Source: an uncultured Rickettsiales bacterium (lineage in GTDB: Bacteria > Myxococcota_A > UBA796 > UBA9615). Taken from it: a stretch of DNA of 64,000 bases. The position numbers were made by a program, and so were the translations under genes. Every line of letters starts with the position of its first letter. Position 1 is the first letter of the stretch. Below are positions 1,666 through 5,012 of this stretch, one piece after another. Below the pieces are notes generated by a model. That model searched no databases and had not been told where the DNA came from. It was given only the letters and a program-made list of their open reading frames with translations. Where the stretch lies: contig CAZUHI010000040.1 of the NCBI GenBank assembly GCA_964620495.1, positions 5,323 through 69,322 on the forward strand, written 5' to 3'.

Positions 1666-2610
1666 TCAGAGCGCCGAACGATCCCCGCAGCCGCGCCCGG
1701 AGGCGTCGAGGGTCACGTCCACCGCGGCGAAGATGCGCACCCGCGGCGTCCCCCACCCCGGCCCGATGCCGGTGCCCCCGCCGGCCTGCACCGCGAGGCA
1801 CGGGGTCGGCCGCCCCACGAGCGCGACGCGCCACTCCAGCGGGCGGCGGACGTCGGTCACGGGCTCCCCCGAGGCGTCGGGCAGCTCCGGCCGGGCGTCG
1901 ATCATGACGGCCAGCTCGAGGCCTCGAAGCTCCGTGGGCGTGGTGGGCGTGATCGCGAGGCCCACGGACAGCTCCAGGGCGTGGCCCGCGACCACGGCCA
2001 GGGCGTCCGCCGGAGGACGCAGGTGGACGGCCGTCTCCGTGAGGAAGCGGATGCGCCAAGCCCGAAACTCGGTCACCACCGACGGCCGGAACGTGGGGCC
2101 CGCCCACCCGAGCATCGAGGTCTCGTCGCCCGTGGGCAGGGTGCCCGCGAGGCGGATGGAGAGGCCGAAGGTGATCTCCTCCACGTCGAGCAGGCGGACG
2201 ACGGCCCCGAACCCGACGTCGCCGAGGCCCGCGAACCCGGCGAGGTGAGGCCGATCGAGCAGGTCCTCGGCGCCTCCCTGGGCGTCCATGTGCAGGGGCA
2301 GCACGGCGAAGACATCCAGGAACCCGAAGCCGTAGGCCAACCCGACGTCCATCGTCGTGAGGCGGTGGATCAGCGCCCCCTCGGTCTCCGTGCTGCCCTC
2401 GAGCGGCGACAGGGCGGTGACGACGCCGACCCCGACGTGGCCCCCGTGCCGTGGGAGCAGGTCCGCCCCGGGCATCCCCGGGAGGCCGGTCCCCACGGGG
2501 TCGAGGCGGAACCGCTGGGCGTCTACGGAGGGGCCGACGGGCCGGTCGTCGGCGAGGGCCGGGGCGGCGGACAGGGCGATCGCGGAGACCGCCGCGACCG
2601 CGCGGATCAC
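1666..2610 (-). CDS. Putative outer-membrane beta-barrel protein with signal peptide
   Basis: Listed ORF 1666..3087 has an Arg-rich, implausible N-terminus. A GTG at 2610 gives the signal peptide [20 protein letters not shown]. The rest has alternating hydrophobic beta-strand-like patterns and Gly/aromatic turns. The GTG overlaps the upstream stop (GTGA, 2607-2610). Confidence 0.55.
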
Positions 2611-5012
2611 GCCTCGGTCCCGCGAATCTCCTCGAGGATCGGGCGGAGGGCCGCCATCACGGCCGTCGCATCGGGCCGCTCGCTGAAGAGCATGGTCAGG
2701 AGGCGCTTGTCGTCGACCTCGACCACGAACACGTGGGTCTTGCCCGCGTCCAGGACCGTGAACCGGCGCCCGGCCGCGTCCTCCCGAGCGAACTCCATGG
2801 CCTGCGCCGAGAACGCGGCGACGGTGTCCCGGCGCTTCAGCTTCTTGATGGTCGACGCGATGACGTGACCGTCGAGGTTCCCGAGCTGCACGCTCACTGC
2901 GTCGAGGTCCTTGCGCGCGATCTTCTTGAGGGACTCGTAGACCTCCATGAGGTCGCGCGAGCCGCCGCCCGCAGGCAGGTCCATCCAGGTGTCGGTGACG
3001 AGCGCGACGCCGAGCTCCTGGTTCTCGTCGATGGATGCGCCGCCGGCCGCGGGCTCTTCGTCCCATTCGTCGTCGTCGGCGGCCCACAGGTCGAGCTCCT
3101 CCATGCTCTCGTCCGCGGGGTCCTCGTTCGACCAGCCGGCGACCAGGGTCTCGGCGGCGAGGTCGTCCTGGGACTCGTCGGCGGGATGCACGATAGGGGG
3201 CGCAGGGCGCGAACGGAGAGGAGGGAGGCCGGGGACCCGGTGTACGACGGGCGTGGGCTCGGGAGCGGCGACGGGCTCGGGGGCGGCGACGGGCTCGGGA
3301 GCGGCGACGGGCTTGGGGGCGACGGGCTCCGGATCGACGACGGGATCCGCCGACGTGGGCTCCTCTTCGAGCGCAGCCGCGACCGCGACCGGACCGAGCG
3401 AGTCGTCCGTGGGTTCGTCCTCTTCGACGCTCCCGTCCGCCCCGCCGAGCTCCAGGACCAGTCCGTCTTCGCCGTCCTCGAGCACCGACACCGCGCCGCT
3501 CCGGCCGGCCGCGGCCTCGGGTTCCGGCTCGGGTTCAGGCTCGGGCTCCGGCTCGGGCTCAGGCTCGGGTTCAGGCTCGGGTTCAGGCTCGGGTTCAGGC
3601 TCAGGAGCCGCGACTGTCTCCTCCTCCTCCATGCCCCCGAGGTGGAGGACGAGCCCGTCGTCGCCGTCCATGGAGGTGTCGGAGCCCAACTCCAAGAGGA
3701 CGCCGTCGTCCGCCTCCGCGTCGTCCGAGTCGTCGCCTCCCAGCTGCAGCACGAGGCCGCCGTCTTCGTCGAACACCTCGTCGTCGTCGCCGCCGAGCTG
3801 CAGGACGAGGCCCTCGTCCTCCTCCGGCTCGGGGGCGAGGACGGCGGGGGGCCCGGGCGCGGGGGCGGGCTCGGACGCCTGGACCGGGGCAGGCTCCGGA
3901 TCGTCCCACCCCACGACGACGGCCGCGTACTCGACGCTGTCCAGCGCGTTGAACTCTTCGGGCGCCGGGGGCGTCGGCTCGCTCTGGCGCGGCTCGAACT
4001 CCGTGGGGGCTTCCTCGGGGGCCGGCGGGGGCGCGACCTCCGCGACCGCCGCGAGCGGCGCGAGCCCCTGCTGCACGGGCGGCAGCTTCGGGGGCTCGTT
4101 GTAGACCGTGTCCAGCGCCTGGGTCGCTCCGGCCTCCTCCGGATCGACGTCGGCCTCTTCGATCGCGGGCGGGGGCGCCGGAGGAGCCGGGGGCGGGCTC
4201 CCGAGGCTCGGCGCCTCGCCCTGATCGACGAGCGTGGGCACCGCCTCCAGGGAGGCGACCACCACTTGGGCGAGGGAGGACGCCGCGGCGTCGTTCTCGG
4301 GGTCGATCCGCCGCACCACGCCGGACTCGAGGAGGCGGTACCCCTCCATGAGCAGCGGCAGGGTCGGGGCGTGAATGTCCAAGGGCGCGTCGTTCGACGC
4401 CTCGTCCACCTGGAACCGGCCTCGGTCGTGCAGGAGCAACTGGAACAGCGCGGCGGGCCCGAAGAGCTTCCCGAACTGCGCGGCGACGACGCGACCGTCG
4501 CGCACGTGCAGGGTCGCGGCGGTGCGAGCCGAGTCGGGGACGATGCGCAGGGTGGCGCTGCGACGCCGGAGGACGAGGTCCCGGAGGAGCTGGGGGTAGG
4601 ACGTGGTCTTGAGCTCGCCGTGCTGCGACGCGGCCGCGTCCGAGCGCTGCATCACCAGGCGCTCCGCGGAGCGCCCCAGGGTGCGCGGCGCGAAGGGCCG
4701 AGGGAGCATCGCGTCGACGCCCGCCCGGGTGAACCCGGCCACCTCCTCGGCGCCGGCCACGGAAGACAGGAGCAACACCGGCGGCCGGTCGTCCCCCAGC
4801 GCGTCGAGCGCGGCCAGCAGGAAGCGGGCGCCGTCGTCGGCGAGGTCGGCGTCGGCGATGACGAGATCGGGGGCGTCGCCGAGCGCTTCGACGGCCGCTT
4901 CGGCGTCCGGTTCTGCGGAGAGGTCCCACTGGTCCGGCCCGAGGGCAGCCCGCAGGACCCGAGCGGTGCTCGGATCGGGGTCGACCAGCAAGACCCGTGC
5001 GGTGCGCGCCAT
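2607..5012 (-). CDS. Multidomain regulator: response-regulator receiver + PATAN/DUF4388 + long acidic/Pro-rich repeat region + C-terminal Roadblock/LC7-like domain
   Basis: 801-aa ORF. N-terminus is receiver-like (VLLVDPDP...DLVIADADL...RPF). A DUF4388-like block follows ([25 protein letters not shown]...[10 protein letters not shown]...[10 protein letters not shown]...GRFQV). The middle is disordered, with five GLVLxLGG repeats and a (PE)n tract. The C-terminal ~110 aa resemble Roadblock/MglB-like domains. Confidence 0.8.
3255..3323 (-). repeat. 18-bp tandem repeat, three full copies plus one partial, encoding PVAAPE units
   Basis: gggctcgggagcggcgac / gggctcgggggcggcgac / gggctcgggagcggcgac / gggcttgggggcgac on the plus strand. 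The protein reads [24 protein letters not shown]. Confidence 0.85.
3516..3606 (-). repeat. Coding hexanucleotide microsatellite giving about 15 Pro-Glu dipeptides
   Basis: The plus strand reads ctcgggttccggctcgggttcaggctcgggctccggctc... (units ggYtcN ggctcg). It translates on the minus strand as PEPEPE... inside CDS 2607..5012. Confidence 0.9.

Follow-up and report, generated by a model that had tools for sequence, protein, structure and literature searches.

The locus examined here raises the question of how a single protein that joins a receiver, a PATAN domain, a long acidic linker and a Roadblock-like domain might work, and whether its receiver still answers to a kinase. The gene lies in a 64,000-nucleotide stretch of contig CAZUHI010000040.1 (GenBank assembly GCA_964620495.1, deposited as an uncultured Rickettsiales bacterium), referred to below as the window, where it occupies 2607..5012 on the minus strand, with an ATG start at 5012..5010 and a stop at 2609..2607, and encodes a protein of 801 amino acids (aa). 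An earlier reading of the window from its sequence alone (the sequence-only reading) had proposed this three-domain architecture and suggested a new single-chain polarity or GTPase-activating protein (GAP)-type regulator. The architecture holds, by Pfam for the receiver and PATAN domains and by predicted structure for the Roadblock domain. As to function, we lean somewhat towards the view that the protein belongs to a rare family of response regulators, composed of a receiver, a PATAN domain, an acidic disordered linker and a divergent Roadblock domain, and that here it is a pseudo-receiver scaffold orphaned of its kinase.

At 73% guanine plus cytosine (GC), the window contains long spurious open reading frames (ORFs) in all frames, and we therefore examined GC content by codon position. 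Over 2607..5012 of the minus strand the values for the first, second and third positions are 0.82, 0.48 and 0.91, as expected of a coding frame over the whole length, and full-length homologues (P0001, P0002, P0003 and the protein of the closest genome locus, L003) align with the 801-aa protein at both ends. The ORF as originally called, with its ATG start, is thus upheld. The exact sequence is absent from a collection of 15 billion proteins, although the adjacent CarA is present there; the nearest sequences found were P0013, a close relative present only as a fragment of 225 aa, and full-length relatives at 59-77% identity. NCBIfam models returned nothing on the 801-aa protein beyond weak receiver-type and low-complexity matches.

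We used a HMMER profile of the C-terminal domain to define the family among 1.84 billion representative proteins. It comprises 39 clusters at 50% identity, all matched at their C-terminal end, and none of them is an ordinary MglB or Roadblock protein. Forty sequences were scanned for N-terminal domains, and a receiver together with DUF4388 (PATAN) was present in all 23 members that possess an N-terminal region, the remaining sequences being fragments or lacking that region. No description of the three-domain family was found in the literature searched, and at 39 clusters the architecture is neither common nor characterised.

Receiver residues and the neighbouring kinase gene

Both N-terminal domains exceed the curated Pfam cut-offs. 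The receiver (REC; Response_reg, PF00072) spans residues 7-112 (4677..4994, minus strand) with 33.0 bits against a cut-off of 30.2. PATAN (DUF4388, PF14332) matches residues 131-229, scoring 39.6 bits where 25 are required and spanning nearly the full model (profile positions 1-119 of 122), and conservation across the family extends it to about residue 262 (4227..4640, minus strand). The two domains adjoin, with the receiver first. PatA-type regulators (Anabaena PatA and Synechocystis PixG, PixE and LsiR) also combine PATAN with a receiver, PATAN likely serving as a protein-binding output, but in the opposite order; they differ further in that the protein described here continues into an acidic linker of about 400 aa and then a Roadblock domain, carries a degenerate, kinase-orphaned receiver and is encoded outside any chemotaxis-like cluster. 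The REC-PATAN-TPR proteins (P0004-P0012), more distantly related, share the receiver-PATAN module at 25-29% identity over 28% of the query, but end in TPR repeats instead of an acidic linker and Roadblock domain.

In CheY, D12 and D13 form the acidic pair at the end of strand b1 that binds Mg2+. This pair is broken in the window protein (VLLVD-P-DP), where D11 is kept and P12 stands in the second acidic position; the homologues P0003, P0014, P0016 and P0027 show DDD at this site. The phospho-acceptor D54 (IADADL) at the end of b3 and S83 (LLLSS) at the end of b4 are both kept in their canonical positions. The conserved b5 lysine of the KPF motif, found in 20 of the 23 family members, is replaced by R105 (LPRPF). 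The RPF sequence had been remarked upon from the sequence alone, and the P12 replacement can now be added to it.

Comparison of the loci shows that the state of the receiver is matched by the presence or absence of a kinase gene. All five loci with a canonical receiver (DD, D, S/T and K), namely the contig of P0003, L004, L002, L005 and L012, have a histidine kinase gene directly downstream, and these genes encode homologous cytoplasmic HisKA/HATPase proteins and often overlap the stop codon of the receiver gene. All six loci with a degenerate receiver lack it: the window, L003, L001 (P0001), L009 (P0017), L010 (P0019) and L011 (P0025). The second acidic residue is lost in each of the six, and in some the phospho-acceptor or the lysine is lost as well. 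No cognate histidine kinase adjoins the window gene, in a search confined to the downstream slot and its neighbourhood. Judged from these loci, the basic form of the family is a two-component response regulator paired with its own histidine kinase, encoded just downstream. Neither this kinase nor its loss along with receiver degeneracy had been recognised in the sequence-only reading.

Another way to view the receiver is through the selection acting on it. The closest genome locus, L003 (contig CAZEKB010000049.1), shares about 81% DNA identity with the window across 13 kb, the proteins of the two loci being 77% identical; a search of genomes with a 4-sequence alignment gave only two loci. Ratios of non-synonymous to synonymous substitution rates (dN/dS) between the window and L003, which come from one sequence pair with partly saturated synonymous sites, are 0.18 for the receiver, 0.39 for PATAN, 0.21 for the alignable part of the linker and 0.085 for the Roadblock module, which is 94% identical between the two. 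All parts of the protein are therefore under purifying selection, the Roadblock module most strongly and PATAN least. Because kinase loss tracks receiver degeneracy while the receiver is still constrained, the window protein looks like a kinase-orphaned pseudo-receiver scaffold that remains under purifying selection, and a degenerate receiver that is nevertheless selected fits a pseudo-receiver keeping a structural or binding role. Pseudo-receivers are expected to arise in just this way, a dedicated kinase gene being lost and the catalytic residues of the receiver decaying in parallel, with the domain itself still selected.

Fold and affinities of the C-terminal domain

The conserved C-terminal module (residues 665-801; 2610..3020, minus strand) begins with a strand-like motif, GVALVTDTW, followed by a core of Roadblock/LC7 fold at about residues 688-800. 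Pfam gave no Roadblock match on the whole protein. With the C-terminus in isolation, Robl_LC7 (PF03259) was the top match but remained below threshold (E=0.048, 13.9 bits against a cut-off of 23); weak matches to the same family occurred in 4 of 36 family members (best E 0.013), making it the commonest weak match of any family. Structure prediction gave a clearer picture. The AlphaFold2 (AF2) model built on a 36-sequence alignment had a predicted local distance difference test score (pLDDT) of 86.3, exceeding 95 in the core, and a predicted template-modelling score (pTM) of 0.79. Its elements run, in domain numbering, a1 (24-37), b1 (43-48), b2 (53-56), a2 (61-77), b3 (86-92), b4 (95-101), b5 (106-112) and a3 (118-136). 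In the Roadblock/LC7 fold a five-stranded antiparallel sheet carries helix a2 on one side and helices a1 and a3 on the other, and the predicted model reproduces the characteristic a-b-b-a-b-b-b topology.

When this model was compared with the PDB using Foldseek, the top 35 matches were all MglB (from Myxococcus xanthus and Thermus thermophilus), Streptomyces Roadblock/LC7 or Asgard Roadblock proteins, with E-values from 7.5e-7 to 1.7e-5, probability 1.0, template-modelling (TM) scores of 0.54-0.71 and root-mean-square deviations (rmsd) of 4-5 A. The next matches were the roadblock domains of Rag/Ragulator (LAMTOR), further Asgard Roadblocks and MglC. A first AF2 model from 4 sequences, since superseded by the 36-sequence model, was poor (pLDDT 66) and gave the same families with weaker scores (E ~1e-3, TM ~0.35). 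Searches at the level of sequence were less productive. Against PDB sequences, the C-terminus as a single sequence gave only noise and a 4-sequence profile gave no match, while the family profile matched just two sequences, both Asgard Roadblock proteins in the correct register, at E ~1. Alignment of the 36-sequence family alignment with a 15-sequence MglB alignment by hhalign was not significant (E 0.029, probability 1.7%, 30 columns), though in register over a1-b1-b2, and the same was true against a single MglB sequence. The MglB alignment was shallow, containing only close orthologues at 76-95% identity; its M. xanthus sequence was verified against 6h5b_B.

These values bear on whether the C-terminus is a Roadblock domain at all. 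It could instead be a convergent or otherwise unrelated profilin-like or longin-like a/b sandwich, for example a small-ligand sensor, and the sub-threshold Robl_LC7 match, the PDB-sequence matches at E ~1, the insignificant hhalign result, the moderate TM scores and rmsd and the fact that the model is itself a prediction would all be compatible with this. We regard this alternative as very improbable, given that every one of the top Foldseek matches is Roadblock or MglB, that even the poor first model agreed, that both PDB sequence matches and the weak hhalign match fall in the right register, and that bona fide Roadblock families are equally divergent from one another. MglB itself reaches Asgard Roadblock only at E 0.02, and divergence of this degree is thus normal within the superfamily. 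The Roadblock fold of the C-terminus is well supported by the model, and the earlier Roadblock assignment therefore stands as regards the fold, but not at the level of the Pfam cut-off.

A separate question is whether the domain is a true MglB-type GAP platform for an MglA/SofG-like GTPase encoded elsewhere, which would make the protein a single-chain polarity regulator with a GAP activity and a PATAN output. MglB forms dimers via a2/b3 and engages MglA with its two-helix side, supplying no catalytic residues; it has no conserved arginine, contacting MglA through a hydrophobic Ala/Gly patch on a2 (A68/A72 in T. thermophilus, A64/G68 in M. xanthus) (PMC3199381). MglB is indeed the best structural match, including its MglA-bound forms, and shares with our model the a-b-b-a-b-b-b fold, an additional C-terminal helix (a3) and a conserved helix a2, which is the MglA-binding face in MglB and the most conserved segment of the C-terminal domain across the present family. 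MglB homologues are often encoded near PATAN proteins, and PATAN and MglA/MglB genes are known neighbours (PMC4316618, citing Makarova 2006); in addition, relatives of the CarA encoded in the window include some labelled Myxococcota. In contrast, MglB stands alone, as a protein of 129-179 aa whose gene accompanies mglA, whereas here the domain terminates an 801-aa chain with no GTPase gene nearby, its similarity to the MglB profile is insignificant, and no ordinary MglB appeared among the 1.84 billion proteins searched. Furthermore, the near-invariant residues of the 36-sequence alignment (Q45, G51, S56, R63, R64, A68, F70, V99, R106, F112 and P116, domain numbering) include three arginines, which sets this family apart from MglB. 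Candidate offsets place M75/E76/F77 at the position of MglB A64, the register between the two a2 helices being ambiguous. Roadblock paralogues such as MglC do not bind MglA. These comparisons do not support placing the domain in the MglB orthologous group.

The search for a GTPase partner leads in the same direction. In a six-frame P-loop scan of the window, RadA and a Ser/Thr-kinase/AAA protein were the only finds and no Ras-like GTPase appeared, and Pfam scans of the large window ORFs found no small GTPase, in agreement with the earlier statement that the window has no MglA-like GTPase gene. Nor was a small GTPase found near the 11 homologous loci. We conclude that the proposal of a single-chain polarity or GAP-type regulator finds no support beyond the fold, in view of the insignificant hhalign comparison, the lack of a GTPase in the window or at these loci and the invariant arginines, and we hold the MglB-type GAP platform to be an unlikely account of the domain. 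As separate propositions, we give about a one-in-three chance that the Roadblock domain binds a GTPase and about a one-in-five chance that it has true GAP activity. A single GTPase-type domain is encoded in the window, a MeaB-like G3E domain, not Ras-like, which is fused to a methylmalonyl-CoA mutase (IcmF-like) in a gene that runs off the window end (61566-63998, minus strand).

Fusions of a receiver with an MglB-like domain were noted in 2015 by Wuichet and Sogaard-Andersen (section 7 of PMC4316618), a precedent that the sequence-only reading had overlooked. Like the present family, they have an N-terminal receiver and an MglB-like C-terminus that escapes Pfam Robl_LC7, but only five proteins are mentioned, in passing and with no PATAN reported, and it is by description only that they are set beside the family here. 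That divergent Roadblock domains escape current Pfam models echoes the 2015 remark. What appears new, from the literature searched, is the three-domain combination; the single domains, the PATAN-MglB neighbourhood (2006) and the fusions of receiver and Roadblock (2015) were already known.

The acidic linker and the proposed scaffold

The linker (residues 263-664; 3021..4226, minus strand) is 402 aa long and contains 109 Asp and Glu (27%), 74 Pro (18%) and only 7 Lys and Arg (1.7%). It had been described as acidic and Pro-rich, which is correct, and as about 450 aa separating all three domains, which is not: it is shorter and lies only between PATAN and Roadblock, receiver and PATAN being adjacent. 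Within it are a (Glu-Pro)14 run (residues 471-498; 3519..3602, minus strand), three PVAAPE repeats and five GLVLxLGG-type motifs located by regular-expression search (residues 401, 419, 437, 453 and 517; 3441..3812, minus strand), each flanked by acidic residues. Tandem Repeats Finder detected the DNA of the Glu-Pro run (3516-3602, period 12, 7.2 copies) but returned no tandem repeat for the GLVLxLGG motifs. Every family member has an acidic linker, with lengths from 77 to 411 aa. The GLVLxLGG motifs also occur in P0001 (4 copies) and L003 and not in more distant members, and are therefore confined to the clade of the window protein. The window protein, L003 and P0001 have three conserved islands in common (residues 354-370, 593-624 and 638-652), which are likely to be short binding motifs.

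Three resemblances may be recorded. One of the islands reads EELDLW..DD.WDE, and a related motif (LEDDDFSETLAV) occurs in P0002 and P0003. GLVLxLGG resembles GVALVTDT, the strand motif that precedes the Roadblock core throughout the family, and it also resembles the ubiquitin C-terminal tail LVLRLRGG, probably by chance.

The conserved linker and Roadblock bear on a simpler account, in which the Roadblock domain is a dimerisation module only, no GTPase is involved, the linker is passive and the protein is a PatA-like regulator whose sole output is PATAN binding, for instance to a type IV pilus extension ATPase. Dimerisation via a2/b3 is obligate for Roadblock proteins (PMC3199381), and in Synechocystis the PATAN output domain binds PilC and the N-terminal domain of PilB1 and is sufficient for output by itself (bioRxiv 10.1101/2021.06.11.447907). 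The absence of a GTPase gene nearby at any locus agrees with this account, and locus L010 has a gene for a PilB-like MshEN/T2SSE ATPase and a STAS gene (together at 5891-8043) two genes downstream of P0019. Since cyanobacterial PATAN binds PilB, the PilB-like neighbour is suggestive, but it occurs at a single locus; a PilB-like ATPase was looked for downstream in L003 and was not found. The distribution of constraint also fits poorly, since the Roadblock module is the most constrained part of the protein and PATAN, the supposed sole output, the least. Moreover, the conserved polar surface-type residues Q45, S56, R63, R64 and R106 exceed what a simple dimer interface needs, and the conservation of helix a2 suggests that it serves as more than a dimer interface. 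The conserved motifs in the linker argue that it is not a passive spacer. We consider this dimerisation-only account unlikely as well.

Returning to the pseudo-receiver scaffold, we propose the following mechanism. The Roadblock domain would homodimerise through helix a2 and strand b3, by analogy with solved Roadblock proteins, and the dimer would tether two receiver-PATAN heads on acidic linkers of about 400 aa carrying short binding motifs. PATAN would be the partner-binding output, as it is in cyanobacteria, where it binds the type IV pilus motor, and the two-helix face of the Roadblock dimer could dock another protein, either a further Roadblock protein or a Ras-like small GTPase whose gene lies elsewhere. 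In relatives with a canonical receiver, this adaptor would be switched through phosphorylation by the neighbouring kinase. In the window protein the kinase input would have been lost, and the scaffold would work independently of phosphorylation, as a pseudo-receiver. Knowledge of the domain families, which is its whole basis, points to cell polarity or surface motility as the most likely setting.

An arrangement of this general kind is familiar from RomR, a polarity scaffold of M. xanthus that works with the Roadblock proteins MglB and MglC. RomR and the FrzS/AglZ-type pseudo-receiver proteins would be comparable in having an N-terminal receiver, a long Pro-rich or acidic disordered region and a C-terminal interaction module. 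However, RomR has neither PATAN nor a Roadblock domain, and the likeness is one of analogy and not of membership.

Several points weigh against the scaffold proposal. The correlation between receiver and kinase comes from 11 phylogenetically related loci and not from 11 independent events. D54 is kept and the change from Lys to Arg is conservative, so that some phosphorylation may persist, with acetyl phosphate or a kinase encoded far away as the donor. Homology to Roadblock at the level of sequence reaches only sub-threshold scores; dimerisation and the disorder of the linker are both inferred; and the lineage is assigned from labels of metagenome-assembled genomes (MAGs) only. As for genomic context, no GTPase, MglB, RomR or pilus gene was found in the window and none lies consistently near the homologues, the neighbours being housekeeping genes (carA, xseA, the gene for an SBP_bac_5 protein, and thrS).

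Elements of these accounts can be combined. PATAN and Roadblock might act in one complex. The Roadblock dimer would then be a GTPase regulator of a new type, its nearly invariant arginine pair at the start of a2 contributing catalytic or binding residues in trans to a small GTPase that is not MglA-like, while PATAN would hold the complex to the motility or pilus apparatus and the GLVLxLGG motifs would provide multivalent contacts. We think this combined reading distinctly improbable; if true, it would describe a one-protein polarity module that replaces separate MglB, RomR and MglC and has shed its kinase input in this lineage. A more general point concerns the fusion itself. PATAN and MglB-like Roadblock genes have been known as frequent neighbours since 2006, with no direct link between the two shown before, and a natural PATAN-Roadblock fusion (a 'Rosetta stone') argues that both act in the same complex, and provides a defined construct with which that idea can be tested. 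The practical value is limited by the uncultured lineage and the inferred function.

Lineage, neighbouring genes and other features of the window

The relatives of the window CarA at 72-80% identity carry the labels Myxococcota, Deltaproteobacteria, Proteobacteria or Rickettsiales MAGs, after which identity falls to 66% or less. The family appears confined to an uncultured lineage, probably related to Myxococcota, as far as these labels and matches allow. The MAG containing L003 is labelled 'uncultured Rickettsiales bacterium' despite a GC content of about 73%; this label is probably mis-assigned, given that GC content and the CarA relatives labelled Myxococcota or Deltaproteobacteria.

Gene order around the family is kept even between members at 35-40% identity and runs sulfatase, carA, xseA, a Cys-rich exported protein of about 100 aa, the receiver-PATAN-Roadblock gene, the histidine kinase, where there is one, and an SBP_bac_5 protein; P0022 and P0036, of a subfamily further removed, have different gene surroundings. 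In the window, the place of the kinase gene is taken by an unrelated gene (1666..2610, minus strand), which encodes a secreted protein of about 314 aa and whose candidate GTG start at 2610 overlaps the TGA of the upstream gene (GTGA), an arrangement that suggests translational coupling of the two. The protein has a signal peptide, is probably beta-rich and has no Pfam match. The idea that it is a decayed histidine kinase was rejected, as it shows no similarity to the kinase of L004.

On the other side lies the gene for the Cys-rich protein, which in the window has 93 aa (5101..5382, minus strand), with a signal peptide, a lipobox-like site and a DDDDS-rich (poly-Asp/Ser) tail, and with no Pfam match. 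A homologue of about 100 aa is found directly upstream of the receiver-PATAN-Roadblock gene in at least 8 loci, often overlapping both xseA and that gene, and eight cysteines are invariant across 5 loci. The gene was considered as a candidate xseB, and this was set aside since it has no Pfam match and looks like a Cys-rich exported protein. Its product is probably exported, judging from these features, and is not evidently part of the proposed mechanism.

An Rfam scan of the window gave no match. Three further genes, all on the plus strand, may be mentioned: one for a protein of 1203 aa that combines a Ser/Thr kinase domain with an AAA_16 ATPase domain and TPR repeats (16103-19714), one for a protein with a peptide-N-glycosidase F C-terminal domain (41200-42945), and one for a class I lysyl-tRNA synthetase (tRNA-synt_1f; 36281-38203), a type that is uncommon in bacteria.

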